Part shown: piece after piece, positions 6,092 through 63,061 of the stretch
How the letters are laid out: each line of letters opens with the position of its first letter
Numbering within the stretch: position 1 is the first letter of the stretch
Assembly (NCBI RefSeq): GCF_026153205.1
Contig: NZ_JAPFBW010000026.1
Coordinates: 32,315 to 96,314, forward strand
Length of the DNA: 64,000 nucleotides
Direction: 5' to 3'
Source of the DNA: Aquabacterium sp. A7-Y
GTDB lineage: Bacteria; Pseudomonadota; Gammaproteobacteria; Burkholderiales; Burkholderiaceae_C
Notes under the pieces: model-generated
Database searches by the model: none
Told to the model about the DNA's origin: nothing
The model's input: only the letters and a program-made list of their open reading frames with translations
Made by a program: the position numbers and the translations under genes

Positions 6092-6695
6092 GCCGGGCTG
6101 CCTGGCCGTGCATGTGCTGCCGCGCGGGGCCGAGCCCCGGCGCCGGCCAGCCGGCAGCGGGCGCGCCGACCCGCGGGTGAGGGCGCTGCTCGCGGCCTAT
6201 GGCGGCCCGCACCACAACCTCTCGCACAGCGGCGGCTGGCTCTACCTGGCGGTCTCCGGCAGTCCGGTGGGCGTGGACCTGGAAGGCTTTGCCCGCCGTC
6301 GGCATGGCGAGGCCTTCCGCCGCTTCCTGCTGGAGCGGGAGGACCCGCGGGCGGAGCGCGCGCCGGTCGCGCCGGGCTCCCTGGACGAGCAGGCGCTGGC
6401 GGTGCGAGTGTGGTCCCGGCTGGAGGCCCTGACCAAGTGCGAGGGCCAGGGCCTCGACGGCGCGCTGGACCACCTGCGCGTGCCCGCCGGGCCGCTGCCA
6501 GAGCCCTGGTGCGTCGACACCGCACAGGGCCCGCGCTGGCTGCTGGACCTGCCCAGCCCTGCGGGCATGGTGGCCAGCCTGGCCAGCCCGGTCCGCCCCC
6601 GGCATGTCCGCCTGCATGGCCCCGACGACGCGGCGGGCGACACGCCGGGACTGGCCCCCTTTCCTGCCAATGGCATTGATGACTTTCAACAGTGA
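6069..6695 (+). CDS. 4'-phosphopantetheinyl transferase (Sfp/EntD type)
   Basis: LSHSGGW...GVDLE and W..LEALTKCEGQGL motifs. The start overlaps the upstream gene by 23 nt. Confidence 0.7.
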   Translation: MHSAAPLEPGCLAVHVLPRGAEPRRRPAGSGRADPRVRALLAAYGGPHHNLSHSGGWLYLAVSGSPVGVDLEGFARRRHGEAFRRFLLEREDPRAERAPVAPGSLDEQALAVRVWSRLEALTKCEGQGLDGALDHLRVPAGPLPEPWCVDTAQGPRWLLDLPSPAGMVASLASPVRPRHVRLHGPDDAAGDTPGLAPFPANGIDDFQQ

Positions 6696-6700
6696 AAACG

Positions 6701-7867
6701 ATGCAAGCTGAGCGTGATTCCGCAGCCGGCCACTGGCCGCCTCCCGCCCTGCTATGGATGAGCGGGCTGACTGTACCCATGACCGTGGTGGCGTCCTTCC
6801 TCTGGGCGGCCCATGCGCGCCAGCCCGGCTGGGTCTGGCTGGTGCCGGCGCTGATCTACATCGTCATCCCGCTGGGCGACTGGCTGGTGGGCGTGAACCG
6901 GCGCAATCCGACGGCGGCGCAGAAGCAGTCGCGGAGCGCCGAGCGCTGGAGCCGCTGGGCGGTCGAGCTCTTCGTGCCCCTGCAGCTGGCCAGCGTGCTG
7001 GCCGGGGCCTGGCTGGTCTCCGTGCTGGAGCTGCCGCTCTGGGCGCTGCTGGGCGCCGGCCTGGCCGTGGGCAGCGTCAATGGCGTGGGCTTCATCGCCT
7101 CGCACGAGCTGCTGCATCGCCGCTCGCGCTGGGCGCAGTGGGGCGCGCGCTGGGCGCTGGCACCCACCTTGTACGGCCACTTCATGGCCGAGCATGTGCG
7201 CGGCCACCACAAGGCCGTGTGCACCCCGCCCGATCCCACCAGCTCGCGCATGGGCGAGAACTATTGGCGTTATCTCGTGCGCGCCCTGGTCACGGGCTTC
7301 CAGTCGGCCTGGCACATCGAGGCGCAGCGCCTGGGCAAGAAGGGCAAGCCGGTGTGGTCGCTGGAGAACGAGAACTTCCTGGCCTGGTCCGCCTCGCTGC
7401 TGCTGTTCGGAGGCCTGCTCCTGGCCTTCGGCTGGAGCATCCTGCCCTTCCTGCTGCTGCAGGCCGCCTATGGCGTCGTGCTGCTGGAGGTCACCAACTA
7501 CATCGAGCACTACGGCATGCTGCGCAAGAAGCTGCCCAACGGCGAGTACGAGCGCTTCACCCACGCCCATGCCTGGGACAGCAACCACCTGGTCTGCTCG
7601 CTCTTCATCTACCAGCTGCAGCGCCATGCGGACCACCATGTGAATCCCAACCGGCCCTACCACCTGCTGCAGTCCGAGGCCCAGACCCCGCAGCTGCCGG
7701 CCAGCTACGTCACCCTGATGCTGGTGGCCTATGTGCCGCCGCTGTGGTTCCGCCTGATGAACCCCATGGTCATCCGTCACCATGGCGGCGACCTCAGCCT
7801 CGCCAATGTGGACCCGCGCAAGCGCGAGCAGATGATGGCCCTGGCGGCCCGCTGGGAGCAGGCATGA
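6701..7867 (+). CDS. AlkB-like integral-membrane di-iron hydroxylase/desaturase
   Basis: HELLHR, EHVRGHH, NYIEHYG and LQRHADHH motifs. The ORF track starts at GTG 6692; ATG 6701 is more likely. Confidence 0.75.
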   Translation: MQAERDSAAGHWPPPALLWMSGLTVPMTVVASFLWAAHARQPGWVWLVPALIYIVIPLGDWLVGVNRRNPTAAQKQSRSAERWSRWAVELFVPLQLASVLAGAWLVSVLELPLWALLGAGLAVGSVNGVGFIASHELLHRRSRWAQWGARWALAPTLYGHFMAEHVRGHHKAVCTPPDPTSSRMGENYWRYLVRALVTGFQSAWHIEAQRLGKKGKPVWSLENENFLAWSASLLLFGGLLLAFGWSILPFLLLQAAYGVVLLEVTNYIEHYGMLRKKLPNGEYERFTHAHAWDSNHLVCSLFIYQLQRHADHHVNPNRPYHLLQSEAQTPQLPASYVTLMLVAYVPPLWFRLMNPMVIRHHGGDLSLANVDPRKREQMMALAARWEQA

Positions 7868-7870
7868 GAC

Positions 7871-8114
7871 CCGCCAGGCCGCCCCGAAGGCGCTCGCACC
7901 GCAGTGCGCAGCACGGAGGTTACCCAATGAGCCCCGCCCGGCCGCCCCGAAGGGGCTCGCACCGCAGTGCGCAGCACGGAGGTTACCCAATGAGCCCCGC
8001 CCGGCCGCCCCGAAGGGGCTCGCACCGCAGTGCGCAGCACGGAGGTTACCCAATGAGCCCCGCCCGGCCGCCCGAAGGGGCTCGCATCGCAGTGCGAAGC
8101 ACGGAGGTTACCCA
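7871..8114. repeat. tandem repeat, 4 copies of a 62-63-bp unit, each containing GGAGG plus ATGAGC (the ribosome-binding site and start codon of the downstream gene)
   Basis: Direct reading: ATG at 7927, 7990, 8053 and 8115 with identical preceding ...gcaccgcagtgcgcagcacggaggttacccaATGagc. The last copy is 62 nt. Confidence 0.9.
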
Positions 8115-10241
8115 ATGAGCCGCGCCACCCTCAGCCAGCAGTGCCGCGATGCCGGCGACGCCTACTTTATGGCCATGGAGGCCCTGGGGCATGACGTGGG
8201 CATCGAGCTGCGCTGCACCCTGCGCCAGCCCGTGGATCTGGACCTGGCGCTGGCGGCCTTCGAGGCGCTGCTGCGCCGCTATCCGGCGCTGCGCGTGCGG
8301 CGCCAGCCCGACGCGCACGGCGAGGGCTGGTCCTGGCAGGCCCTGGACGAGGCCGGCGCGCTGGCGCTGTGGGAGCGCCAGGCCCGTGCCCTGCGCGATG
8401 GCCAGGCCGGTCCGGCCCTGGGCGAGGGCCTACCCTTGCTGCTGGTGGACCTGCAGGAGCGCACCCTGGTGTTCCGGTCCGACCACACCTTTGCCAATGG
8501 CCGCGCGGCCTTTGCCTGGATCGCCCGCTTCCTCGAACTGCTGCATGGCGAGCAGCCGGCAGCCCTGGCCGGCGCGCCGGCGGCCCGCGGGCCCGTGGCC
8601 TCGCTGCCGCGGGCGCTGGCGCAGTTCATGCGCCAGTCCTGGGCCCGGCGCAGCCTGGGGGCCCATCGGCGCGACCCCGGTGCGCGGCTGCGTCCGGCCG
8701 GGCCGCAGGAGGCCGGCTGGGTGAGCCGCGAATGGACCGTGCCCCTGGCCTCGCTGGAGGCCCTGCTGCAGGGTCATGGCCTGGGCAAGGGCGCGGGCTG
8801 GACGCAGGCGCTCAGCGAGGCGCTGTCCCAGCACCTGCTGGCCAGCCTGCCCGAGCTGCCGGGGCTGCCGCTGCAATGGGCCATCGATCTGCACGAGGCC
8901 TGCGGAGAACCCGTGACAGCCCAGGGCAACTACACGGCCCTGGTCAGCGCCTATGTGGGACGCGAGCACAGCCAGGCACAGCTGGAGCGCCTGATGCAGG
9001 ACGTGCGCCAGGGCCTGGGGCCCGCGCAGGCGCGGCTGATCCAGTTGCAGGCCGCCCGGCGGCCGGCCATGATCCGCTGGTTCTGCCAGAACCTGTGGCC
9101 GCGGCCGGACGGCGCGCCCCGGGCCGCGGCCATGGATCCCGTGCTGACCCTGTCCAATGTGGGCCAGCTGCAGGAGCCGGCCTTCGAGCAGTGGGTGGAC
9201 AAGGCCTCGTTGTGGACCCGCACGCCCTCCGTCTACCTCTCCTGCACGACGGTGGGCGCCCAGGCGACGCTGGCCCTGAGCTTCCCGCGCCAGCTCTTTG
9301 ACGAGGCCCGCCTCTGTGCCAGCCTGGAGGCCTGGGTGGCCCTTGTGCAGCAGCGCAGGGGAGCTGACGAGCATCCGGCCACGGCCCTTGCCGAGGAGCA
9401 TCCGCTGATGCCCCGCCACTTCCAGCTGGACCTGCAGCGCGGCCTGCCGCTGCACTGGAACGGCAGCCCCTTCCGCAGCCAGTTCTTCAATTCCGTGTCC
9501 CTGCTGCTGCCGGCCGGGGAGCGCTGGATCATCGACACGGTACGGCGCACCATCGAGACCCTGCCCGAGCCCCTGCGCAGCGAATGGAGCAGCTACGGGC
9601 GCGACTTTATCGCCCAGGAGTCCATCCACCGGGCCCTGCACCGCAAGTACAACGAGCAGACCACGGCCCAGGGGCTGCAGGACTGGATAGGCGGCAAGGT
9701 GGAGGAGCGCATCACCTGGGGCGAGAAGGGCACGCCCATCAACCAGCTGGCCTCCTCGGTGACCTTCGAGTACATCACGACGCTGTTCTGCACCCGCGTG
9801 ATCCGCGACCCGTCCTGGCTGGACGGGGCCGACCCGCAGATGGCCCGCCTGTGGCTGTGGCATGTCTGCGAGGAGCTGGAGCACAAGCATTTCGTGCTGG
9901 ACCTGTTCCGGGCCGCGGGCGGCGGCGAGTTGCGCCGTATCGCCTGGTTCATCTGGTTCTCCAGCTCCTTCATGAAGGACCTGCACTACCAGCTCTACCT
10001 GTCCCTGCGCGGCAGCGGCCTGCTGTGGCGCTGGCGCACCTGGCGCGATGCCGCGGTCTTCTACTTCGGCCGGCGCGGCATGACCTGGCTCTTCATAGGC
10101 GGCAGCCTGCGATTCCTCAGTCCCTGGTTCCGCCATCCCGAGGGTCCCGAGGACAGGCTGGCGCGGCAGTGGTTCCAGAGCAATCCGACGGCCTTCGTGG
10201 AAGGGCGCGCGGTCCCCTCGGCCGCAGGCAGCCGGGCATGA
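8115..10241 (+). CDS. two-domain protein: condensation/WS-DGAT-like acyltransferase N-domain (HxxxNG variant) fused to a PF10118 metal-dependent hydrolase domain
   Basis: N-domain has SDHTFANG in place of HHxxxDG. The C-domain is clearly paralogous to the 5243-6091 product (FFNSVSLLLP...GQESIHRALH...WHVCEELEHKHF). Confidence 0.65.
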   Translation: MSRATLSQQCRDAGDAYFMAMEALGHDVGIELRCTLRQPVDLDLALAAFEALLRRYPALRVRRQPDAHGEGWSWQALDEAGALALWERQARALRDGQAGPALGEGLPLLLVDLQERTLVFRSDHTFANGRAAFAWIARFLELLHGEQPAALAGAPAARGPVASLPRALAQFMRQSWARRSLGAHRRDPGARLRPAGPQEAGWVSREWTVPLASLEALLQGHGLGKGAGWTQALSEALSQHLLASLPELPGLPLQWAIDLHEACGEPVTAQGNYTALVSAYVGREHSQAQLERLMQDVRQGLGPAQARLIQLQAARRPAMIRWFCQNLWPRPDGAPRAAAMDPVLTLSNVGQLQEPAFEQWVDKASLWTRTPSVYLSCTTVGAQATLALSFPRQLFDEARLCASLEAWVALVQQRRGADEHPATALAEEHPLMPRHFQLDLQRGLPLHWNGSPFRSQFFNSVSLLLPAGERWIIDTVRRTIETLPEPLRSEWSSYGRDFIAQESIHRALHRKYNEQTTAQGLQDWIGGKVEERITWGEKGTPINQLASSVTFEYITTLFCTRVIRDPSWLDGADPQMARLWLWHVCEELEHKHFVLDLFRAAGGGELRRIAWFIWFSSSFMKDLHYQLYLSLRGSGLLWRWRTWRDAAVFYFGRRGMTWLFIGGSLRFLSPWFRHPEGPEDRLARQWFQSNPTAFVEGRAVPSAAGSRA

Positions 10242-11563
10242 GCGAGGCCGCGCACTGGCAGGCGCCGCCGCACGCCCCGCAGGCCATGGGCTGGCGGGAC
10301 GTGACCTGGCTGCGCATGGACGCGCCCTGCAACCGCATGGTCATCCACTGGGTGGCCTTCCTGGAGCAGTCCCCCAGCCTGGCCCAGTTGCACGAGCTGG
10401 TGGGCCGGCGCCTGCTGGCCTATCCCCGCTTCGCGCAGCGGGTCCGGCGCGGCCTGCTGGGCTACCGCTGGGAGCCCGTGGCGAGCCTGGATCCCGCCTA
10501 CCACCTGCAGGAGCGCGTGCTGCCGCAGGCCGTGGATGCCGCGGCGGTGGAGGCCAGCCTCGCCGACTGGGTGCCGGAGGCGTTGGACCCGCAGCGGCCA
10601 CTGTGGCAGTGGCGGCTGCTCCGATCCAGTACGGACGGGACGGCGGCACTGATCGTCCGACACCACCACTGCATGACGGACGGCGACGGCCTGGTGCATA
10701 TGCTGCGCCACCTCAGTGACGGCGCCCGGCAGGCCGTGGGCCACCCGCGCCTGGAGGACCCCGTCCGCGGTCGCTGCCGCCATGTACCGCCGCCATCGGC
10801 CCTGGGTTCGGCCCTGTCGCGCTGGCTGGGCACGGCCTGGCAGGTGCTGCGCCTGAGTCTGCTGCGACGGGACTCCAGGATGCACTACAGAGGTCGACCC
10901 GGGCGACAGAAGTGCCTGATGAGCAGCCCTTCGTTGCCTTTGGACCAGTTCAGGCAGGTGGCCCGTCGTCACGGCGTTACCATCAACGACGTTTGGCTGG
11001 GCGTGGTGGCCGGCGCGCTGCGTCGGCACGCGCAAACGCTTGGCTGGAGTGTCGACGACACGCAGCTGCGCGCTGCCGTCACCTACAACCTGAGGCAGCG
11101 CGAAGATGCCGCCATGATGGGCAACCACTTCACGCTGACGGCCCTCGCCCTGCCGACACACTTGGCAGAGGCCGGGCAGCGGCTGAGAGCGGTGAGTCAG
11201 GGCATGCAGGCAATCAAGACGTCCTGTCACCCCTATGCCACTCTGGCGCTCATGACGTGCATGGGCTGTTTGCCGCGCTTTCTGCAGAGCCTGGCAATGG
11301 GACTCTTCACGAGCAAGGGCTCCCTGGTGTCGACGAACTTGCAGGGGCCAGCCGAGCACCGCTACCTAGCGGGCGCTCGGATCCGCGAGTTTCACTGTTG
11401 GGTTCCTCAGACTGGGCACACGGCGCTGGGTCTGATGCTGAGCACCTATGCCGGTCAGGCAGTGATGAGCGTGTCCTGCGACGCGAAGCTGGTGCCTCAG
11501 CCAGGACTGCTGCTGTCGGCGCTCCAGGAAGAGCTACGGTTGCTGCTGGTCGCGGCGACATAA
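10238..11563 (+). CDS. wax ester synthase / diacylglycerol acyltransferase family (WS/DGAT)
   Basis: HHHCMTDGDG (HHxxxDG) motif. About 440 aa. ATGA overlap with the upstream gene. Confidence 0.75.
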   Translation: MSEAAHWQAPPHAPQAMGWRDVTWLRMDAPCNRMVIHWVAFLEQSPSLAQLHELVGRRLLAYPRFAQRVRRGLLGYRWEPVASLDPAYHLQERVLPQAVDAAAVEASLADWVPEALDPQRPLWQWRLLRSSTDGTAALIVRHHHCMTDGDGLVHMLRHLSDGARQAVGHPRLEDPVRGRCRHVPPPSALGSALSRWLGTAWQVLRLSLLRRDSRMHYRGRPGRQKCLMSSPSLPLDQFRQVARRHGVTINDVWLGVVAGALRRHAQTLGWSVDDTQLRAAVTYNLRQREDAAMMGNHFTLTALALPTHLAEAGQRLRAVSQGMQAIKTSCHPYATLALMTCMGCLPRFLQSLAMGLFTSKGSLVSTNLQGPAEHRYLAGARIREFHCWVPQTGHTALGLMLSTYAGQAVMSVSCDAKLVPQPGLLLSALQEELRLLLVAAT

Positions 11564-16789: not shown

Positions 16790-18529
16790 TCACGGCATGC
16801 CGAACCCGACCAGCAAGCTGACGAAGAGCGCGATCGCCAGGATGGCGGACAGGCTCTTCCAGAACAGCACAGGGTGCCGCTCGATCAAGGGCGGACGCGC
16901 CCTGCTGAAGAAGGTCTTGTTGGGATGGCGCAGGTCGTAAACAAACTCCGACAAGGCCTCGTAGCGCCTGAGCGGGTCGGGGTGCACGGCTTTTCTGAGG
17001 ACGGCGTCGATCCAGACCGGGATCTCGCGGTTTTCGTCCAGCACCGACTCGTAGTGCAGTTTCCTCTGCGCGGACAGTGTCCGGGCCTTCGCGACCTCGA
17101 CGCCGTACGGCAGCCGGCCCGACAGCATCTGGTAGGTCATCACGCCCAGTGAGAACAGGTCGGAACGGGCGCTCCCGGCTTCTCCCAGGAAGTACTCGGG
17201 CGCCGTGTATTGGGCGGTCCCGAGGATCTGGGTCCGCTCGAGCGGACTGGCCATCTCGGTGATGCCCGCCACGCTGGTCGCGCCGAAGTCGATGATCTTC
17301 ACCGTGCCGGTCTTGTCGATCACGATGTTCTCCGGCCTCAGGTCTTGGTGCAGCATCTCGAGGCGATGGAAGGCCTGCAGCCCTTTGGCGATCTGCTCCA
17401 CGATCCCGCGCACGGTTTCGAGGTCGGGCCGGGGGTTGTCGATCATCCACTGCGCCAAGGTCTGGCCATCGATGAACTCGGTCGCGACATACAGACAGCT
17501 GCGTTCCCGCGTGGGCCGGCACGGCTTCAACACATGCGCGCTGTTGATGCGCCGCGCGACCCACTCCTCCATCAGGAAACGCTCGAGGTAGGCCGGGTCG
17601 GCCTGGAGATCCACCGAGGGGGTCTTGAGGATGACCAGCCCATCGGTCTCGATGTCGACCGCGAGATAGATGTGGCTGCGGCTGCTGCCATGCACCTCTC
17701 TGACGATCCGGTACCCGTCGACGACCGTCCGCGCCTCCAGGATCGGCGGAAGGGGCAGTTCCGACAATTGACGATGGATCTCCCTGGCATCCTGGCTGCT
17801 GGGCAACTCGTCGATGACGACAATCTGGACGGTCAGGTTGTCGGCGCTGCCTCGCTGATAGGCCTCCTCGACGAGGCTGCGGGCAGCCCGGTCGAGGTCG
17901 CCTCGCCCGCCTTGCACCGCAGCGGCCAGGAAGGCCGCGTCGAGATGTTCGTACACGCCGTCTGAGGCGAGCAGGAACACGTCGCCCTTCTCGACCTGCA
18001 GCGCCTGGTAGTCGATCTCGATCTGCGGCTTGAAGCCCACCGCGCGGCTCAGGTAGCTTCGCCCCTCGGCAACACGCACCCGGTGATCCTGCGTGAGCTG
18101 TTCGAGCGCGCCGCCGTGCAGGCGGTAGATGCGCGTGTCGCCCACATGGAACACATGGGCGGTGGTGGACTTGAGGACCAGCGCGCTCAGGGCACAGACA
18201 TAGCCCCTGTCCTGGTCGTAGCGGTAAGGGCTTTGCTGAGTCCGCGAATGCAGCCAGGAATTGGTCGCGGTCAGTACACGCTCGACCGCCTTCTTGACCG
18301 ACCAGGCGTCCGAGGTGCAGTAGTAGTCGTCCAGAAAACCCATGACCGCGAACTCGCTGGCGATCTGGCTGACCGAGCTGCTGCCGATGCCGTCGGCCAG
18401 CGCGATGGCGATGCCTTTGGAGCTCAGCAGCGGCTCCTTCGGCACCGAGACGCCATAAAAGTCCTGGTTGACCTCCTTGCGGCCCTTGTCGGAATGTTGA
18501 CCGACCGAGATCCTCAGCTTGTTGCTCAT
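16790..18529 (-). CDS. bifunctional PP2C-type Ser/Thr phosphatase plus Ser/Thr protein kinase with C-terminal TM anchor
   Basis: PP2C motifs (NQDF, ALADGIGS, VGDTR, ASDGV). Kinase motifs (ILKT, HQDLRPENI, DFG, APE). C-terminal hydrophobic helix. An alternative start at 18604 adds 25 aa. Confidence 0.75.
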   Translation of the reverse strand: MSNKLRISVGQHSDKGRKEVNQDFYGVSVPKEPLLSSKGIAIALADGIGSSSVSQIASEFAVMGFLDDYYCTSDAWSVKKAVERVLTATNSWLHSRTQQSPYRYDQDRGYVCALSALVLKSTTAHVFHVGDTRIYRLHGGALEQLTQDHRVRVAEGRSYLSRAVGFKPQIEIDYQALQVEKGDVFLLASDGVYEHLDAAFLAAAVQGGRGDLDRAARSLVEEAYQRGSADNLTVQIVVIDELPSSQDAREIHRQLSELPLPPILEARTVVDGYRIVREVHGSSRSHIYLAVDIETDGLVILKTPSVDLQADPAYLERFLMEEWVARRINSAHVLKPCRPTRERSCLYVATEFIDGQTLAQWMIDNPRPDLETVRGIVEQIAKGLQAFHRLEMLHQDLRPENIVIDKTGTVKIIDFGATSVAGITEMASPLERTQILGTAQYTAPEYFLGEAGSARSDLFSLGVMTYQMLSGRLPYGVEVAKARTLSAQRKLHYESVLDENREIPVWIDAVLRKAVHPDPLRRYEALSEFVYDLRHPNKTFFSRARPPLIERHPVLFWKSLSAILAIALFVSLLVGFGMP

Positions 18530-18539
18530 GTCGCTATCG

Positions 18540-18560
18540 AAAAAAAAAGGCCGTGCGGCC
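18540..18560 (-). promoter_or_regulatory. GC hairpin (GGCCGCACGGCC) followed by a T9 tract 10 nt upstream of the phosphatase-kinase ATG (terminator-like or slippage-prone homopolymer)
   Basis: Read directly. The A9/T9 run is conspicuous in a 67%-GC genome. Confidence 0.4.
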
Positions 18561-18653
18561 TCGCGGAGTGTCAGCATGCCGGGCGCCTTATCGCGCGTGT
18601 CCATTTACAGTAAATAGGATATTCGTCAGGAAGCCCCGGACAGAGTTTTGTTC

Positions 18654-18671
18654 TGCATTTATTCAAATGCA
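18654..18671. promoter_or_regulatory. perfect 7-4-7 palindrome TGCATTTattcAAATGCA in an AT-rich divergent promoter region
   Basis: Read directly in the 18605-18878 intergenic region. Confidence 0.35.
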
Positions 18672-18878
18672 AACCAGCCCGCCTCTGTTGCAGGCGCGCT
18701 GAGCGGGTTCCCTACCGGGCCGCGGAAGGCACGCTTCGGCGGGCTCCGCCGGCTTGTGTTGATTCGGTCACGATATATTGGCGCGCGGCAAAACGGTTCC
18801 CGGCGGAAGGCGGCGCCGTCCCCAGCGACGTTTCAGGATTCGTAGCAGAATAGAGCCCGTGTCCCCACGGAGCGCACG

Positions 18879-19142
18879 ATGAGCAGCATCCCTCCCATCA
18901 GCGAAGCGAGCATGCAGGCGGTCGAGGACCGGTTTCCCGAGCTGGCGGCCATGGCCGGCCGAGCAGCGCATGAGCGCGCGTTGACCCAGACCGGTCGTGT
19001 GGTGATGAAGTCGGCCAACGGCATGCTGGTGGAAGCACGTGCGAACGGCGCGATCCGGGTCATCAAGCCGCTGCCTGCCACCACGCCGGTGGCGCGAGGG
19101 CTGGTCCTGACGCGCAAGAAGGCCGGTCACGGCGCCCGGTGA
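18879..19142 (+). CDS. small protein upstream of, and translationally coupled to, a zeta-toxin-like ATPase (putative antitoxin)
   Basis: 87 aa. Its stop overlaps the GTG start of the next gene (GTGA). Confidence 0.4.
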   Translation: MSSIPPISEASMQAVEDRFPELAAMAGRAAHERALTQTGRVVMKSANGMLVEARANGAIRVIKPLPATTPVARGLVLTRKKAGHGAR

Positions 19143-19918
19143 CCCAGGCCCAAGCCAGGTTGCGGGTTTTCGCCGGGCCCAACGGCTCCGGCAAGAGCAC
19201 GATCCACAGTGTGCTGCGCAAGGAGTGGATCGGCATTTACGTCAACGCCGACGACATCGAGAGGACCCTCAAACGGCAAGGTCGGCTCGACCTCGGTGAG
19301 TTCGATCTCGAGACCCAGGCATCCGACCTGATGCTGCCACTGCAGGCCTACCTTCGAACCTCGGCCCTGCTGACCCAACACGGACTCGACGGCATCGCGG
19401 AGCGGCTTCATCTCGAAGGATCGGCGCTGCATCTGCCAGCGGGAGAAATGAATTCCTATGTCGCCGCGGTGCTGGCCGACTTCATCCGGCGCGAACTGCT
19501 GCGGCAGGGCCTGTCCTTCACCTTTGAAACGGTGATGTCCTCGCCGGACAAGATCGACTTCATGCACGAGGCGCAGGCGCACGGCTACCGCACCTATCTG
19601 TACTTTGTCGCCACCGACGACCCCGCCATCAACATCGAGCGAGTGCGCCTGAGGGTGAGCCAGGGTGGACACGCCGTGCCGGACGACAAGGTGCTCCAGC
19701 GATACCAGCGCTCCATCGGCCTCCTCGACCGAGCCTGCAGCGCCGCCAACAGGGCCTACATCTTCGACAACTCCGGCGAGGCGCATGAGCTGATCGCCGA
19801 AGTGACCGACGGCGAGACCTTGACGGTACACGTGGACGCCCTGCCCGCCTGGTTCACCCGCACCACCTTGTGGCAGTCGTTCGAGCCGACCAGCGACACC
19901 CGGTCCGAGGCCGGCTGA
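19139..19918 (+). CDS. zeta-toxin-family P-loop ATPase/kinase-like protein
   Basis: FAGPNGSGKST Walker A followed by YVNADDI. 259 aa. Confidence 0.6.
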   Translation: MTQAQARLRVFAGPNGSGKSTIHSVLRKEWIGIYVNADDIERTLKRQGRLDLGEFDLETQASDLMLPLQAYLRTSALLTQHGLDGIAERLHLEGSALHLPAGEMNSYVAAVLADFIRRELLRQGLSFTFETVMSSPDKIDFMHEAQAHGYRTYLYFVATDDPAINIERVRLRVSQGGHAVPDDKVLQRYQRSIGLLDRACSAANRAYIFDNSGEAHELIAEVTDGETLTVHVDALPAWFTRTTLWQSFEPTSDTRSEAG

Positions 19919-24921: not shown

Positions 24922-26118
24922 CTAGAGCTGCAAGAGATCGGGGATCCGCACATCGGGATTCACATCGGCGTCATAGTCGACACCGCTCATCTCGAATCCG
25001 AAGAGGCGCAGGAACTCGGTCTTGTAGCCCGCGAAATCAGTCAGCTCATAGAGCCTGTCGGTGCTGACCTGATTCCACAGCTCGCGCACTCGCGCCTGGG
25101 TTCCCGGATCGAGCTCCTTGTAGTCTGTCCGAAAGCGCCCTTCTTCGTCGATGCAGGGTGACTTGCCGCTCAAGCTGTCGTGGTACAGGGCGTGGATCTG
25201 CTCGATACAGCCCTCATGAGTTCCTTGCTCCTTCATGACCTTGAACAGCAAGGACAGGTACAGCGGCATGATGGGGATCGCCGAGCTGGCTTGGGTCACC
25301 ACGGCCTTGAGCACGGAGACCCGGGCGTCTCCGCCCTTCACCGCCAAGCTGTCCCGGATGGCAAGTGCGGCCCGGTCGAGATCTTTCTTGGCGGCTCCGA
25401 TCGAGCCGTTCCAGTAGAGATCGCGTGTGGTGTCTTCGCCGAGGTAGGTGAATGCGGTGGTGGTGGCGCCGTCGGACAACACGCCGGCCGCGAGAAGCGC
25501 ATCCATCCACATCTGCCAGTCTTCACCGCCCATGACCGCCACGGTGCCGTCGATTTCCTCTTGCGTGGCGGGCTGCAACGTCGTCTCGTTCACCACTTCC
25601 TTGTCCGTGTCGATACCGCGCACGGTGATCGCTCGTCCTATCGGTTTCAGGGTCGAGCTGAACACCTTTCCTGTTCGGGGGTGGGTCCGCCTCGGCGCGG
25701 CGAGGCTGTAAACCACCTGATCCACCTGACCGAGATCTCGCTGGATGAGATCGATGGTCCTTTGCTTGGTCTCGTCGGAAAAGGCGTCCCCGTTGATGCT
25801 CTTGGCGTACAGGCCCTCATCGGCCGCGTACTCGTGGAAGGCCGCCGTGTTGTACCAGCCGGCGGTGGCGGGTTTGCTGTCGGTCCCCGGGCGTTCGAAG
25901 AACACCCCCAAGGTAGCGGCACGGCAGTTGAACGCTGCCGTGATCCGAGCCGCCAGCCCATACCCGGTGGACGCGCCTACCACCAGAACCTTCTTCGGGC
26001 CGCAGGGGATGGTGTCCTTGGCTTTGACGTATTCGATCTGCTGCTTGACGTTGGTCCTGCAGCCAAGGGGGTGGGCAGTCACGCAGATGAAGCCGCGGAC
26101 GCGCGGTTTGATGATCAT
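24922..26118 (-). CDS. fabV: trans-2-enoyl-CoA/ACP reductase FabV
   Basis: Characteristic [21 protein letters not shown]-terminus and about 398 aa length. Confidence 0.85.
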
Positions 26119-26465
26119 GAAGACCTCGATCGTCTGATTTTTTCGGCGACGCCCACGTCAACCTGTGGTGCGAACGCATGGAGCAGAAGCCCCTGGCAGT
26201 GTAAGCGCCGGGGAACAGGTGCCAGGCCGACCTGGCGCAGCCGCTTCTGCCCCCCGATGATGCGTCGCTGGCGGCTCGCATCCAGCGCGAGTACCGTCCT
26301 CTCCTGCGCTCTACAAACTGCACGGAGACATTGCGATCCAGCTGCATCTGCGGCCCATCGACTACCGCGCTTCGCGCCGGCAAGTTCGTGGGCCTGCCCG
26401 CCTTCCCCTGCCGCCGCGCTCGGTCGTATCCTTACCCCCCACAAGGATCAGTACAAAACCAACCC

Positions 26466-51704: not shown

Positions 51705-51727
51705 AAACCCGCCAGGGGCGGGTTTCT
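51705..51727 (+). terminator. terminator-like hairpin AAACCCGCCaggGGCGGGTTT with weak U-tract
   Basis: Read directly after the anti-sigma gene stop. Confidence 0.4.
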
Positions 51728-51845
51728 CAGAGAGACGGGGTCACTCAGAGAGACGGGGTCAGGCCTTAAATTAAATCTTAACTGCTACGCCTTGCGAGGA
51801 CACCCGCCGGGATCGATGGGATGCGGGACTTCAAATTTAAGGCCT

Positions 51846-57571: not shown

Positions 57572-57595
57572 ACACTCTGTACACACCCGTCGCCA

Positions 57596-60118
57596 ATGCC
57601 TCTGACCCTTCCCCAACTCGAACGCCACCTGTTCAAAGCCGCCGACATCCTGCGCGGCAAGATGGACGCATCTGAGTACAAGGAATACATCTTCGGGATG
57701 CTGTTCCTCAAGCGCTGCTCGGACGTGTTCGAGCAGCGACGAGAAGAAGTCATCAAGCTTGAGTTGGAGACCGGCAAGAGCCTGGTCGACGCGTCAAAGT
57801 CAGCCGAGAACCCGCGGTGGTACAGGAAGGAGGGCTCATTCTGGGTGCCACCGCACTCTCGGTACATGTATCTGCTCAACGACGCCCACCAGAACGTCGG
57901 CGATTACCTCAACAAGGCGCTCACCGGCATCGAGACGGCTAACACCAGCCTCTACGATGTGCTGGAGCATATCGACTTCACGCGCAAGGTCGGCCAGAGC
58001 AAGATCCCCGACATCAAGCTGCGCCAGCTGATCACGCACTTCGGCATCCACCGCCTGCGCAACGAAGACTTCGAATTCCCCGACCTGCTGGGTGCCGCCT
58101 ACGAGTACCTGATCGGCGAGTTCGCCGACTCGGCCGGCAAAAAGGGAGGCGAGTTCTACACCCCGCGCTCGGTGGTGCGGATGATGGTGCGGCTGATCAA
58201 GCCCGAACTGAAGCACGACATCTATGACCCCTGCTGCGGCTCCGGCGGCATGCTGATCGCGGCCAAGGAGTACATCGACGAGCACGGCGAAGACGGCCGC
58301 AAGGCCAACCTCTTCGGGCAGGAGTTCAACGGCACGGTGTGGTCCATTGCCAAGATGAACATGCTGCTGCACGGCATCAGCACCGCCAACCTGCAGAACG
58401 AGGACACGCTGGCCGAGCCGCAGCACGTTGAAGGTGGGGAGCTGATGCGCTTCGACCGCGTGCTCACCAACCCGCCGTTCTCGATCAACTGGGGCAACAC
58501 CGAGAAGAACGCCGACGACACGCCCGCCTGGGCACCGAAGTTCCCCGAGCGCTTCCGCTTCGGCCAGGTGCCGCTGGGCGCCAAGAAGGCCGACTTGATG
58601 TTCCTGCAGCACATGCTGGCGGTCACCCGCGACCGCGGCATGATCGCCACCGTCATGCCGCACGGCGTGCTCTTCCGCGGCGGCGAAGAGAAGACCATTC
58701 GCGCTGGCGTCATCGATGCCGACCTGCTCGAAGCCGTGGTCGGCGTCGCGCCCAACCTGTTCTACGGCACCGGCATTCCCGCCTGCATTCTGGTGTTGCG
58801 CCAGCAGGTGCAAAGCGGTGCCCGCCGCGTCAGCGGCAAGCCGCCCGAGCGCCAAGGCAAGGTGCTGTTCATCAACGCTGACCGCGAGTTCTTCGAAGGC
58901 CGGGCGCAGAACCACCTGCTGCCCGAGCACATCGAGAAGATCGTCACCACCTTCGACGAGTTCCAGGCCGTGCCCGGGTTTTCGGCCATCGTCGACAACG
59001 CCACGCTGAAGGCCAACGACTACAACCTGAACATCCGCCGCTACGCCGACAACGCCCCGCCACCCGAACCGCACGACGTGCGCGCCCATTTGGTGGGCGG
59101 CGTGCCCAAAGCGGAAGTCGACGCGAAGGCCTCGCTGTTCGCTGCGCACGGTCTGAACCCGCTGGACCTGCTCGTAGAGCGCCCGAACGACCCTACTGGC
59201 AAGTACTTCGACTTCCGCCCTGAGCTCACGAAGCGTCAGGACCTCAAGCCCGCCATCGAAGGCAACGCCGGGCTCGTTGCCAAGGAGGCGGCCATCCGCG
59301 CAGCCTTCGAGCAGTGGTGGCAAGCCCACAGCGCCCGCATCACGGCGCTGGCCGGGCAAATGGACAACGCGGCCAGCCTCGTCGCCCTGCGCAACGACCT
59401 GCTGGCCAGCTTCAGCGAATCGCTCGAAGCCATCGGCCTGCTCGATCCCTTCCAGGTGCGCGGCATCGTGGCCGGCTTTTGGTACCAGACCAAGTACGAG
59501 TTCCTCACCCTGATGGCGCGCGGCGCCAAGGGGGTGGCCGACGCCTGGCGCACCAGCATCGTCACCGCGCTGGAAGACAAGGCCAGCAAGGAAAGCCCGC
59601 TGGAGCACAAGCTTGTCAAGTTCCTGATGAGCGACTTCGTCGAGGCGATCAACGAACTGGAGGCGAAGAAGGCCGAGTTGGACAGCCAGATCAAGGCGGC
59701 CAGCCCCAAAGACGCCGAAGGTGAGGACGGTGCCGATGCGGCGACTGGTGACGAGGCCGCGGATGGGGATGGCGACGAGGAGAACCCGGTCGAGGAAGCC
59801 CAACTCAAGACCTGGAAGAAGGAACTCGCCGCCGTCAAGAAGCAGCTCAAGGCCAAGAACGACAGCTTCAAGCAGCATATCAACGCCGCCGTCGATGGCC
59901 TCTCACCCGAGCAGGCGGCCAATCTGCTGCTGACCATCCTGCACAACGACATGCGTGCGATCGTCGAGCGCTACATCGCCGCTCAACGCAAAGCCATCGT
60001 CGTCGCGTTCGACAACTGGTGGGCCAAATACCGCGTGACGCTGACCGAGATCAAGGACAAGCGCGATGCGGCGGCGCAAGCGCTGCAGGGATTTTTGAAG
60101 GGGTTGCGGTATGTCTGA
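57596..60118 (+). CDS. hsdM: type I restriction-modification N6-adenine DNA methyltransferase subunit HsdM with long C-terminal extension
   Basis: HsdM N-domain, NPPF motif ([11 protein letters not shown]). 840 aa. Confidence 0.85.
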
Positions 60119-61409
60119 GCCCTGGAAAGAAGCCACGATTGCTCAATGTCTTGCCACGTCATTTGCGGGCGAATGGGGTACCGAACCGAAACCCGGCAAC
60201 GCGCTGGTGTTCCGGGCTACCGACATCGACGACGAGGGGCGAATTGTTGGCAATGGTGCTGAGAGGCGATTGCCGATTGGCAAGCTGACCGCAAAGCGGC
60301 TACAGGATGGCGACATACTGCTGGAAGGCTCTGGCGGTGGGCCAGACAAGCCCGTGGGTCGCGTGGCGTACTTTGCTGGCGACGACAGCGCTGGTCCCGC
60401 TGTCTGCTCGAACTTCTTCAAGACCCTTCGACCTGCTCGCGATCGAGTCGACTCTCGGTTTCTGCTTAGGAAGTTGGCGTGGTTCTACAAGCAAGCGCCG
60501 ATTCTTGCGCTCCAGCAGCAGACCACTGGCATCATCAATCTGAAGTTTGAGGAGTACCTTGCGTCGCCGATCACGGTGCCGCTCTCGATCGCAGAGCAAA
60601 GCACGATCGCGCACGTCCTCGACACCCTTGACACCGCCATCCACGAAACCGAGGCGATCATCGCCAAGCTCAAGGCTGTTAAGCAGGGCCTACTGCACGA
60701 TCTGCTGACGCGCGGCATCGATGCCAACGGCGAACTGCGTCCGCCCCAGGCTGAGGCGCCGCATCTCTACAAGCCGTCGCCGCTAGGGTGGATTCCGAAG
60801 GAGTGGGATGTTGTCTTGCTAGACCGTGTCGCAGTTCGGGGCAGCGGTCACACGCCGAGCAAGAGCATTCCGTCGTATTGGAATGGAGGCATCAAGTGGG
60901 TTTCTTTGGCCGACTCCCATCGTCTGGACAACATCTACATTGACGAGACGGACAAGGAGATCAGCGTTCTTGGTATCGCCAACTCTTCGGCTGTCTTGCA
61001 TACCGCGGGAACTGTGGTTCTTTCGCGAGACGCTGGGGTAGGAAAAAGCGCGGTGCTTGCACGTGACATGGCTGTAAGCCAGCACTTCATGGCATGGCGA
61101 TGCGGAGACCAACTGAACAATCTGTTCTTGTACTTCTATCTGCAACGTGAGAAACCTAGGTTCGAGGCGATTGCACTTGGGAGCACAGTCAAGACGATTG
61201 GCTTGTCTTTCTTCAAGAGCTATATGGTGGCGCTCCCAAGCCGCGCTGAGCAGGACCAAGCGGTCACCTCATTGATGTCCATGGAACGAAACTTGTCCGA
61301 CCATCTTGCAGAAGTCGACAAGCTCCGCGACTTCAAACTCGGCATCATGGACGACCTCCTCACCGGACGCGTCCGCGTCACGCCGCTGCTGGAAGCCACC
61401 GCCGCATGA
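60111..61409 (+). CDS. hsdS: type I restriction-modification specificity subunit HsdS
   Basis: Two target-recognition domains separated by conserved coiled regions. Overlaps hsdM by 8 nt. Confidence 0.8.
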
Positions 61410-63061
61410 ACCACCTCCTGCCGCCCGCCGAATCCCTGACGGTCGAGTTCAAGAGCGACCGGAGGCGCCTGCCTGACCACGAACTGGTCGAGGCGGTGGT
61501 GTGCCTCGCCAACACCGAGGGCGGCGAGCTGTGGCTGGGGGTGGAGGACGACGGCACTCCCACTGGGCTACACCCCGATCACCAGATGCTGATCGGCTTG
61601 CCCGGCCTGATTGCGGCGCGCACCTCGCCCTCGCTCAACGTGACGGTCGACACGGTGGAAGTGAACGGGCTGCCTGTCGCCCGCATCGCGGTGCCCAAGG
61701 CGCGCGCGGTCGTGGCGACGGCTAGCGGTGTCTATGTGCGGCGGCGGCTCAAACACGACGGCAAGCCCGAATGCACGCCGATGCTGCCGCACGAGCGCGA
61801 GAGCCGCGCCGCCAGCCTGGGGCTGACGGATGTGTCCTCGCAGCCGGTGGCCGGCGCCACGCTGGCCGACCTGGACCCGCTGGAGCGCGAACGCCTGCGC
61901 CAGGCGGTGCAGCAGTATGGCGGCGACCGCGTGCTGCTGGAGCTGGACGACGAGGCGCTGGACGGCGCGTTGGGGCTCACGGTGCGCGAGCCCGATGGCA
62001 GCCGCCTGCCCACTTTGACGGGCCTGCTGCTCGTGGGCCGCGAGAGCGCCTTGCGCGAACGCGTGCCCACGCACGAGTTCGCCTTTCAGGTGCTGGCGCA
62101 ACAGGCCGTGCGCTTCAACGAGTTCCGCCGCTTTCCGCTGCTGAAGGCGCTGGACTGGCTGGAGACCAACTTCCGCCCCTACAACCCGGAAGAGGAGTTG
62201 CAGGTGGGCCTGTTCCGCGTGCCGGTGCCGATGGTGGACATGGCGGCCTTTCGCGAGGCGGTGGCCAATGCGCTGATCCACCGCGATTACCACCGCCTGG
62301 GCGCGGTGCACGTGCGGCTGGAGGACGACGCCCTGGTGATCAGCAACCCGGGCGGGCTGGTGGAGGGCGTGACGCTGGCCAACCTGCTGGTGACCGAGCC
62401 GCGCCCGCGCAACCGCACGCTGGCCGATGCCATGAAGCGCATCGGCGTGGTCGAGCGCTCGGGCCGCGGCGTGGACACCATCTACCGCGGCATGCTGAAG
62501 TTCGGCCGGCCGGCGCCGGACTATTCGCGCACGGATGCGCACGGCGTGGTGGTGCGCCTGCCCACCGAGCCGGCCGATCTGGACTTTCGCCGCCTGGTGG
62601 TCGAAGAAGAACGTCGCCGCAGCGCCGAGTTACCGATTGACAGCCTGATCGCGCTGGCGGCGGTGCGGGAGTTGAAACGCATGACGGCTGACGAACTGGC
62701 CCAGCGCATCCAGCGGGACGCCGCGAGCGCGAAGCGCACGCTGGAGGCCTTGACCGAGGTCGGGTTGGTGGAGGCGCACGGCAACACGCGCGGGCGCAGC
62801 TACACGCTCTCAGCCGCGGTGTACCGGCAGGCGGGCGACAAGGCCGGCTACGTTCGGCAGGCCGGGTTCACCCCGCTGCAGAACGAGCAGATGGTGTTGA
62901 GCTACGTGCGACAGCATGGGCAGATCCGGCGCGCGGAGGTGATGGCGCTGTGCCGGCTCAGCGAGGGGCAGGCCAAGGAGCTGATTCGCAAGCTGAAGGA
63001 GCGCGGCGAGTTGGTACAACATGGCGAGCGCCGCGCGGCCTACTACACGGCCAGCCCCTGA
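61406..63061 (+). CDS. AlbA_2 (Schlafen-like) divergent-AAA / HATPase-like putative DNA-binding protein embedded in the hsd operon
   Basis: N-terminal ESLTVEFK...LANTEGGELWLGVEDDG (AlbA_2 signature). C-terminal winged-helix-like region. ATGA overlap with hsdS. Confidence 0.65.
   Translation: MNHLLPPAESLTVEFKSDRRRLPDHELVEAVVCLANTEGGELWLGVEDDGTPTGLHPDHQMLIGLPGLIAARTSPSLNVTVDTVEVNGLPVARIAVPKARAVVATASGVYVRRRLKHDGKPECTPMLPHERESRAASLGLTDVSSQPVAGATLADLDPLERERLRQAVQQYGGDRVLLELDDEALDGALGLTVREPDGSRLPTLTGLLLVGRESALRERVPTHEFAFQVLAQQAVRFNEFRRFPLLKALDWLETNFRPYNPEEELQVGLFRVPVPMVDMAAFREAVANALIHRDYHRLGAVHVRLEDDALVISNPGGLVEGVTLANLLVTEPRPRNRTLADAMKRIGVVERSGRGVDTIYRGMLKFGRPAPDYSRTDAHGVVVRLPTEPADLDFRRLVVEEERRRSAELPIDSLIALAAVRELKRMTADELAQRIQRDAASAKRTLEALTEVGLVEAHGNTRGRSYTLSAAVYRQAGDKAGYVRQAGFTPLQNEQMVLSYVRQHGQIRRAEVMALCRLSEGQAKELIRKLKERGELVQHGERRAAYYTASP

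Follow-up and report, generated by a model that had tools for sequence, protein, structure and literature searches.

The window analysed here is a 64,000-nucleotide (nt) stretch of Aquabacterium sp. A7-Y (contig NZ_JAPFBW010000026.1, positions 32,315 to 96,314; position 1 is its first letter), and our subject is an array of four short tandem units in it that are probably copies of a small insertion element dispersed in the Burkholderiales. The array lies inside a tightly packed, co-oriented gene cluster of lipid or wax-ester type as judged by Pfam, which begins with a ketoacyl synthase, a short-chain dehydrogenase/reductase, an FMN/FAD enoate reductase, a desaturase, a PF10118 hydrolase and a phosphopantetheinyl transferase, and continues with a second desaturase (6692–7867), the array, a 708-amino acid (aa) protein (8115–10241), a wax ester synthase/diacylglycerol acyltransferase (WS/DGAT; 10238–11563) and a fatty acyl reductase. 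Tandem Repeats Finder (TRF) reported a single array at 7864–8126 (period 63, 4.2 copies, 96% matches, score 477), with no other repeat of the window nearly as strong, and a 41-mer with the 3' end GGAGGTTACCCAATGAGC occurs there four times against none expected from 100 shuffles. Neither low-stringency BLAST nor a filter-free, full-sensitivity covariance-model search found further copies in the 64 kb beyond the four units. The features of the junction are as follows (ORF, open reading frame; SD, Shine-Dalgarno sequence).

6692–7867, + strand: fatty-acid desaturase or AlkB-like membrane enzyme, 391 aa from GTG 6692 (Pfam PF00487, E 5.7e-30)
7864–8114, + strand: 251-bp insertion made up of four tandem units (TRF, unit alignment and covariance-model hits of 64–90 bits per unit)
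7864–7926, + strand: unit u0 (TRF and unit alignment, as for the next three)
7927–7989, + strand: unit u1
7990–8052, + strand: unit u2
8053–8114, + strand: unit u3
7864–8118, + strand: 84-codon array ORF, with ATG 7864 on the desaturase stop (ATGA) and TGA 8116–8118 on the start of the 708-aa gene (ATGA)
7915–7919, + strand: SD GGAGG of u0, 7 nt 5' of ATG 7927
7978–7982 (u1), 8041–8045 (u2) and 8103–8107 (u3, serving ATG 8115), + strand: SD equivalents by pattern match
7929–7958, + strand: stem-loop 1 of u1, GAGCCCC/GGGGCTC, 7 bp with a 16-nt loop (arms 7929–7935/7952–7958; inverted repeats and minimum free energy folds)
7992–8021 (u2) and 8055–8083 (u3), + strand: stem-loop 1 equivalents, degenerate in u0
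7958–7971, + strand: stem-loop 2 of u1, CGCAC-CGCA-GTGCG (direct reading; recurs in each unit)
8115–10241, + strand: gene for the 708-aa protein, native start ATG 8115, with a C-terminal PF10118 metal-dependent hydrolase domain (Pfam)

The array between the desaturase and the 708-aa gene

A first-pass annotation made from the letters alone had described four tandem units of about 63 bp, each with an SD and ATG-AGC, and had placed the ATGs at 7927, 7990 and 8053 in one frame that stops at TGA 8116–8118 over ATG 8115. TRF and unit alignment bear out the units, the frame is as described, and tandem amplification as such proves to be a recurrent property of the element family. The array begins 7 nt earlier than first noted, at ATG 7864, which shares the frame of the other three ATGs and overlaps the end of the desaturase gene, the stop TGA 7865–7867 falling within the first ATGA of the array (7864–7867). 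Every unit has GGAGG, a 7-nt gap and ATGAGC (pattern GGAGGTTACCCAATGA, found at 7915, 7978, 8041 and 8103), and the 84-codon ORF reads MRPARPPRRRSHRSAQHGGYP(MSPARPPRRGSHRSAQHGGYP)x2 MSPARPPEGARIAVRSTEVTQ followed by the stop, with an SD upstream of each of its internal in-frame ATGs. The palindrome noted earlier in each unit is real and corresponds to stem-loop 2, but the better palindrome is GAGCCCC...GGGGCTC, i.e. stem-loop 1.

The units are not all alike. Unit alignment found u1 and u2 identical in sequence, u0 to differ from u1 by three substitutions, and u3 to be 62 nt long with one C less within a C run and two further substitutions. In the family described below 62 nt is a canonical length, and the 63-nt units u0–u2 are non-canonical; their extra C, which sits in the loop of stem 1, turns them into units of a read-through type, whereas u3 terminates on the start codon. 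One interpretation is that this healing of the frame may spare several successive reinitiation steps.

Filled and empty sites and a dispersed family

In three further loci (L001–L003; our locus numbers carry the prefix L) with orthologues of the 708-aa protein (70–89% aa identity) the gene order is as in the window. Here the desaturase and a 709–710-aa gene overlap by four bases (ATGA) in ..TGGGAGCAGGCATGAGC.. with no spacer, the desaturase orthologues share the same end ..GAGCAGGCATGA, and a covariance-model search found no element; the window at the same junction reads ..TGGGAGCAGGCATGAG, then A...ACCCA (251 bp), then ATGAGC. Since the orthologous junctions overlap without a spacer, the spacer in the window is a 251-bp insertion placed exactly at the ATGA stop/start overlap. 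The earlier view that the repeats re-iterate the ribosome-binding site and start of the downstream gene itself does not hold, as none of the three orthologues has such a ribosome-binding site or spacer.

A second pair of filled and empty sites involves Alicycliphilus denitrificans (L015), which reads ..gcc ATGAGC, unit, ACCCA GTGAGC cac, and its closest empty orthologue (L097, 92% aa identity), which reads ..gcc GTGAGC cat; more distant empty Diaphorobacter loci have ..gcc ATGAGC (the empty set for L015 is L097–L100). Because the empty L097 has GTG like the right side of the filled L015, it is most parsimonious to regard the right-hand hexamer as native and the left ATGAGC as borne by the element. 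On the same grounds the element would run from ATGAGC to ACCCA and be placed between a C and the native start codon, so that insertion replaces the last base of the final sense codon of the upstream gene and provides a new stop. A metagenome scan for a junction of the desaturase end with ATGAG returned nothing.

The family was retrieved by scanning one genome per bacterial species with the exact 26-mer GCAGTGCGMAGCACGGAGGTTACCCA, which is present in all four units of the window (4/4), and a covariance model was built from 50 of its members. The scan gave 104 exact matches in 91 stretches from many genera of the Burkholderiales (Variovorax, Rhodoferax, Alicycliphilus, Comamonas, Xenophilus, Ramlibacter, Caenimonas, Hylemonella, Ideonella, Rubrivivax, Methylibium, Piscinibacter, Aquabacterium, Pseudaquabacterium, Albitalea and Paraburkholderia/Burkholderia) and from many metagenome-assembled genomes (MAGs). 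The family consensus is ATGAGC-stem1-loop-stem1'-CGCACCGCAGTGCG-[A/C]AGCACGGAGGTTACCCA, in which the SD is invariant, though it lies inside the 26-mer used for retrieval. The window array fits the family in sequence, position, frame and insertion polymorphism. A Variovorax chromid and a Cupriavidus megaplasmid carry diverged copies; a plasmid collection gave four diverged matches only, and for the locus on the Variovorax chromid it yielded no close orthologue with an empty site. Exact copies were also seen in MAGs labelled Chitinophaga pinensis (L004) and Synechococcus sp. (L051), where the GC content at third codon positions (GC3) of the flanks is about 0.9; both contigs probably come from Burkholderiales and were mis-binned.

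The element stands before unrelated genes; clustering of the 69 downstream proteins with 60 aa or more gave 58 unrelated clusters. This bears on the proposal that the array arose by local duplication of an initiation region, which fails since the SD-bearing sequence precedes dozens of unrelated genes in other genera. An annotated Variovorax record illustrates the usual position, with a permease coding sequence that ends on the left TGA of a unit and the next permease coding sequence starting at the GTG after it.

Statistics were taken from 96 complete units, with the right flank scored in 84 and the upstream stop in 80. Most sites are occupied by a single unit of 62 or 65 nt, and unit lengths of 62 nt (21 units), 65 nt (61) and 89/92 nt (3) mean that 85/96 are 2 mod 3. 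The length steps between subfamilies are divisible by three (62/65, +24, +27), as is that to a deletion derivative of 32 nt. The deletion derivative, at about 950–981 (− strand) of L057, has ATGAGC fused to GCAGTGCGAAGCACGGAGGTTACCCA and no stem 1; it keeps an 11-codon mini-ORF with its stop on the next GTGA. In 77/96 units the mini-ORF that begins at the left ATG has its stop on a TGA overlapping the next NTG. In nearly all loci the frame with the highest GC3 (about 0.9) begins at the NTG that follows ...ACCCA, and in 64/80 the coding frame upstream ends, in frame, on the left TGA. Element and downstream gene point the same way in nearly all copies, and inverted pairs were not seen.

The right start is ATG in 43/84 units and GTG in 36/84, with TGA at +2 to +4 in 78/84. 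Compared with 98 native NTGA overlaps from the same loci (56% ATGA, 32% GTGA), sites with an element have C at −1 in 88% versus 57% (P 7e-6) and GC at +5/+6 in 68% versus 29% (P 2e-7), and the insertion preference for C/NTGAGC (the slash marks the point of insertion) is real. A second perfect target, C/ATGAGC, is found in the window at 10237–10243, in the stop/start overlap of the 708-aa gene and WS/DGAT, and is unoccupied.

Two other accounts of the hexamers were tried and rejected. A target-site duplication is contradicted by the left hexamer being ATGAGC in 84/96 units whatever the right start, by the low number of left GTG starts (4/96 versus 36/84 on the right) and by the pair L015/L097. 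A right-hand NTGAGC borne by the element, an idea prompted by the 43% of right starts that are GTG, was dropped since native NTGA overlaps have 32% GTG (P 0.27); right flanks such as TTGTCC and GTGTCC also speak against it.

Tandem arrays of two to at least five units occur in about one-fifth of the loci, often at the ends of MAG contigs (the array lies at the locus end in L010, L013, L046, L049, L056, L069, L070 and L079). In three loci (L025 5621–5750, L054 3290–3480 and L065 6595–6730) units of different subfamilies stand in tandem before one start, a 65-nt type beside a 62-nt type or a CAAGCAAG type, which implies, on the unit sequences, that these tandems arise only by repeated insertion and not by local duplication. 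Repeated insertion at one junction is possible because each insertion re-creates the target. Units are also found at two separate junctions of one 8-kb locus (L060, 2626–2690 and 3434–3498) and at separate junctions of another (L088, 2584–2651, 113–180 and 1–53), and several junctions of one operon can be hit. We note too that L087 (about 1700–1830) and L050 (about 515–606) have orthologous flanking genes and different element content: one genome has two units of the 65-nt type, the other a single long variant of 89 nt together with additional spacer sequence.

Hairpins, conservation and flanking genes

Stem 1 has the family form GAGCCCCC/GGGGGCTC, with 7–8 bp that take in the GA of the stop codon TGA, and occurs in compensatory variants (GAGCGCC/GGCGCTC, GAGCCCGC/GCGGGCTC, GAGCCGCC/GGCGGCTC, GAGCCAC/GTGGCTC and GAGCTCTC/GAGGGCTC). 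In gap-free alignments of the 65-nt and 62-nt subfamilies 97.2% and 95.9% of the stem 1 cells are paired, and pairing falls to 22–51% when the partner is slid by 1–3 columns. Changes on both sides were seen at four pairs, and the observed covariation score was reached by 2/500 and 0/500 shuffles. Single changes that keep a pair are mostly sense-strand G-U (about 15 cells, versus about 5 with a wobble on the antisense strand only), and because of this there is a weak hint that it is the sense strand, as mRNA or as one DNA strand, that folds. The pairs of stem 2 are kept in 94.6–99% of the family, with little variation and with the stem lying partly inside the search pattern. In u0, the unit without an intact stem 1 of its own, a C-to-A substitution found only there makes CCGCCAGG (7871–7878) perfectly complementary to CCTGGCGG (7840–7847) in the 3' end of the desaturase gene, which may be chance or an alternative pairing.

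At the level of the whole array folding is no better than that of shuffles (z 0.11), and a large structured leader was dropped as a candidate for this reason. Predicted folds leave the SD about half accessible. Rfam 15 covariance models run over 7700–8300 gave only noise (E above 2), 7600–8400 holds no terminator-like sites (stem 1 is followed by GCACC with no U run), and no promoter signal was found at the array.

At orthologous filled sites the element is 97–100% identical, with 26 of its positions fixed by the search and the remaining 36–40 free to vary, while flanking third codon positions are 47–100% identical (47–68% in the two most diverged pairs). In the pair L006/L066 65/66 element positions are identical versus 66–68% of flanking third positions, and in L008/L092 60/62 versus 47–52%, with the two differences of the latter forming a compensatory pair. 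This high identity may stem from purifying selection, from gene conversion or from parallel insertions into a target of high specificity.

The desaturase reading frame has a GC3 of 0.91. The downstream gene had first been called an acyltransferase–hydrolase fusion, of which the hydrolase part stands (PF10118) and the acyltransferase label is only tentative, as the N-terminal 430 or so residues (window 8115–9410) match nothing in Pfam with an E-value up to 0.01. The 708-aa protein has only three full-length homologues among 5.8 billion proteins (89, 83 and 70% aa identity). Because the protein collections contain no exact matches to the desaturase, the 708-aa protein or WS/DGAT of the window, these genes are probably annotated from other start codons in the public record. 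Elsewhere the window has a FabV-like gene (24922–26157, − strand) whose product shows 100% identity to a protein of Aquabacterium sp. A7-Y, a perfect 18-bp x2 tandem (51726–51761) and, at 16790–19918 and 57572–63061, away from the array, defence- or mobile-type genes that include a PP2C–protein kinase fusion, a zeta-toxin-like protein, a type I restriction–modification HsdM methylase and a Schlafen/AlbA_2 protein with HATPase_c_4.

Interpretation and comparison with known repeats

We consider it probable, at about 80%, that the array consists of four tandem copies of a non-coding insertion element of about 62 nt which is dispersed in the Burkholderiales and keeps the operon translated when it lands at start codons. 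Such an element would insert directly 5' of a start codon, preferentially at C/NTGAGC stop/start overlaps inside operons, where its first four bases, ATGA, would re-supply the upstream stop and open a mini-ORF. A GC-rich hairpin, a second small hairpin and a consensus SD (GGAGG) 7 nt before the native start would follow, and a length of 2 mod 3 would put the mini-ORF stop on the TGA overlapping that start. Ribosomes would then pass from the upstream gene to the mini-ORF and on to the downstream gene, with the SD adding de novo initiation, and this relay may have kept the insertion near-neutral for the operon.

In the window the unit would have been amplified to four copies, with the extra C in three of them making read-through units, and the whole array would act as one ORF from the desaturase stop to the start of the 708-aa gene. 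This ORF could be translated by ribosomes finishing the desaturase or by ribosomes initiating at a native internal SD (GGGAG) upstream of ATG 7864, and termination at 8116–8118 would be followed by reinitiation at 8115 aided by GGAGG 8103–8107, while the internal SD/ATG pairs would contribute initiation events in the same frame. The first-pass annotation had suggested reinitiation after upstream ORFs, and since the nested frames indeed run out in an ATGA that overlaps the start, termination–reinitiation is a sensible reading.

Several points weigh against this interpretation. The frame rule is a tendency and not a requirement, as 11/96 units depart from it (including four of 64 nt and six of 66 nt, the latter reading in frame into the downstream gene as fusions), and 26 of the 62–65 nt are fixed by the search pattern, so that well-preserved copies are over-represented in the figures for conservation and for the family. 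Terminal inverted repeats are absent (5/13 matches between the element ends by direct comparison), and at the level of the loci covered neither a transposase nor a recombinase was identified. The relay is suggested by the geometry of the sequence only, and an element that is or was mobile by the filled and empty sites only; the high identity at orthologous sites, moreover, need not stem from purifying selection, as parallel insertion or gene conversion could also produce it. Finally, the copy number in the window comes from a draft assembly, and family arrays are often found at MAG contig ends; because arrays break short-read assemblies, draft copy numbers, that of the window among them, are uncertain.

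The alternative that survives best, though we regard it as unlikely, is a host-domesticated cis-regulatory RNA (a protein or RNase site, an mRNA stabiliser or a processing site) that sets expression across the operon junction, with mobility being secondary. The compensatory changes in stem 1, the predominance of sense-strand G-U among its pair-keeping single changes, and element identity of 97–100% at orthologous sites despite diverged synonymous sites would all suit such an RNA. However, there is no Rfam 15 match, no terminator or promoter signal and no unusual folding of the array, the downstream genes have no common function, and conservation of the hairpin is equally expected if a transposition enzyme recognises the structure.

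We judge it quite improbable that the array is a local tandem amplification of the initiation region of the 708-aa gene itself, acting as a slippage-prone copy-number switch or as a tuner by way of upstream ORFs. The tandem arrangement and the identity of u1 and u2 do show that local amplification took place after insertion, each unit adds an SD and an ATG in frame to the same TGA so that copy number could alter ribosome delivery, and family arrays vary from two to at least five units. Nonetheless, the SD/ATG module is foreign to the 708-aa gene, whose orthologues have an ATGA overlap without such sequence, and the same module stands before at least 58 unrelated gene families.

It is very improbable that the array codes for four 21-aa repeats extending the N-terminus of the 708-aa protein in frame and that the length of u3 is a sequencing error. 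One C added to u3 would fuse ATG 7864 in frame with the gene, and in-frame units of 66 nt (6/96) and an annotated fusion (P0132) exist elsewhere, but 62 nt with CCC is the canonical form of the subfamily (e.g., L047, L068, L089, L092 and L093). It is for this reason the extra C in u0–u2, and not u3, that represents the unusual state. The two substitutions in u3 also speak for a real, older unit, and the orthologous proteins have no extension.

A functional small basic protein (84 aa), or a peptide of 21–22 aa per unit, has hardly any standing with us. An ORF with SD and start is present, and the C-terminal ..ARTAVRSTEVTQ recurs in the family; however, this recurring peptide is the product of a nearly invariant nucleotide core, read-through units use a different frame, and compensatory changes in the stem swap residues (P/A/R) yet keep the pairing. 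A search with the 84-aa ORF returned only 21 weak hits among 1.84 billion representative proteins, most of which are ORFs of 41–86 aa translated from other arrays and one an in-frame fusion to a real protein. The other arrays have the same layout as the window, with one or more read-through units (...GSHRSAQHGGYP-M...) and then a terminating unit (...ARTAVRSTEVTQ and stop). The peptide was rejected on the residue changes that preserve pairing and on hits that come from array ORFs. A mis-resolved repeat in the assembly is scarcely credible either, for although the assembly is probably a draft, family arrays often end MAG contigs and the number of identical units u1 and u2 could be mis-estimated, u0 and u3 each differ from u1/u2 at three positions and give at least three distinct real units, tandem arrays recur in independent assemblies, and the insertion itself cannot be an artefact.

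The element resembles several known classes of repeat. Miniature inverted-repeat transposable elements (MITEs) have terminal inverted repeats and target-site duplications. Families of this kind (Correia/CREE, ERIC and RUP) are likewise small, non-autonomous insertions with filled and empty sites that are sometimes co-transcribed and affect the expression of neighbours, but the ends of the Burkholderiales element are not inverted repeats (there are internal stems only) and its left and right hexamers are systematically different. Nor is it an intrinsic terminator or attenuator, with GCACC following stem 1 and no terminator-like sites. REP/BIME sequences and REPINs, which RAYT transposases mobilise, are short, GC-rich and non-autonomous stem-loop repeats of proteobacteria that also show compensatory changes; unlike the element they lie mostly after genes, in both orientations or as inverted pairs, and have no SD/start/stop design (PMC2817692, PMC3337134). 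We did not assign the element to this class, as it is co-oriented on the start codon in nearly all copies and no inverted pairs were seen; at the level of the loci covered, no RAYT was linked to it. Neisseria REP2 repeats, which are dispersed and lie directly in front of genes, bring with them a ribosome-binding site, an ATG and two internal stem-loops (PMC3184786), and the element is likewise upstream of genes with a ribosome-binding site and two stem-loops. However, REP2 has a promoter and heads transcription units (PMC3184786), whereas at the element no promoter-like signal was found, and it lies within operons, where its relay mini-ORF stands between two genes that are coupled in translation. 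Engineered bicistronic designs and the leader mini-ORFs of natural genes share with it a short, SD-bearing ORF that ends on the overlap with a gene start and delivers ribosomes (PMC12548453), but are fixed and single-copy in one gene, while the element is a portable, repeated cassette.

Its closest analogue is the mycobacterial interspersed repetitive unit (MIRU). The first-pass annotation knew of no description of such an array, yet MIRUs are intercistronic tandem repeats with small ORFs that overlap flanking stops and starts (PMC12548453, PMC3184786). A 2025 review (PMC12548453), citing Supply et al. (1997), describes MIRUs as apparently mobile elements that go into start codons, carry an ORF which is coupled to the gene hit at a −4 nt spacing, and probably keep the effect on its expression small; Delihas (PMC3184786) describes filled and empty MIRU sites with tetranucleotide direct repeats, and ORF ends that overlap adjacent genes. 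The Burkholderiales element is similarly an intercistronic unit of 40–100 bp that is co-oriented and often tandem (PMC3184786, PMC12548453), its small ORF ends on the flanking stop/start, and insertion at start codons with filled and empty sites is common to both. It differs in being found in the Burkholderiales and not in the Actinomycetota (Mycobacterium), in its explicit consensus SD and a hairpin with compensatory changes, and in its target C/NTGAGC and near identity across genera; it should be noted that the likeness is one of described features and not of sequence alignment. We would call the element MIRU-like in its working by analogy and have not filed it as a MIRU. Literature searches with sequence strings and keywords, for which coverage of the literature was incomplete, found no description of this family, there is none in Rfam 15, and the family is apparently undescribed so far.

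More tentatively, and as a possibility on which we would not insist, the family may represent a widespread class of operon-junction-specific cassettes, convergent with MIRUs, in which dedicated machinery reads the folded hairpin and the C/NTGAGC core and sets a portable SD with its relay mini-ORF on stop/start overlaps, the inserted cassette joins the translational circuitry of the operon and comes under purifying selection, and tandem amplification with frame-healing indels, as in the window, tunes the downstream gene heritably in the manner of a variable-number tandem repeat (VNTR). The precise target and the conserved hairpin point to a site-specific mechanism of insertion. Because the target resembles the 5' end of the element, and ACCC/ATGAGC junctions occur in some arrays, site-specific recombination of a junction-bearing intermediate would fit, though this is speculation.

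If our interpretation is right, the element would be a second, independent invention of the MIRU strategy, and could live in operons by restoring what it disrupts, namely the stop, the ribosome-binding site and the overlap of stop and start. For annotators the units are misleading, as they produce spurious small ORFs and N-terminal extensions, and their arrays break short-read assemblies. For the Burkholderiales, the hundreds of junctions with 0, 1 or n units would amount to a natural replicated experiment on translational coupling, copy number may be a source of heritable variation in expression, and the arrays are a candidate typing marker for environmental strains, as MIRU-VNTR is for tuberculosis.

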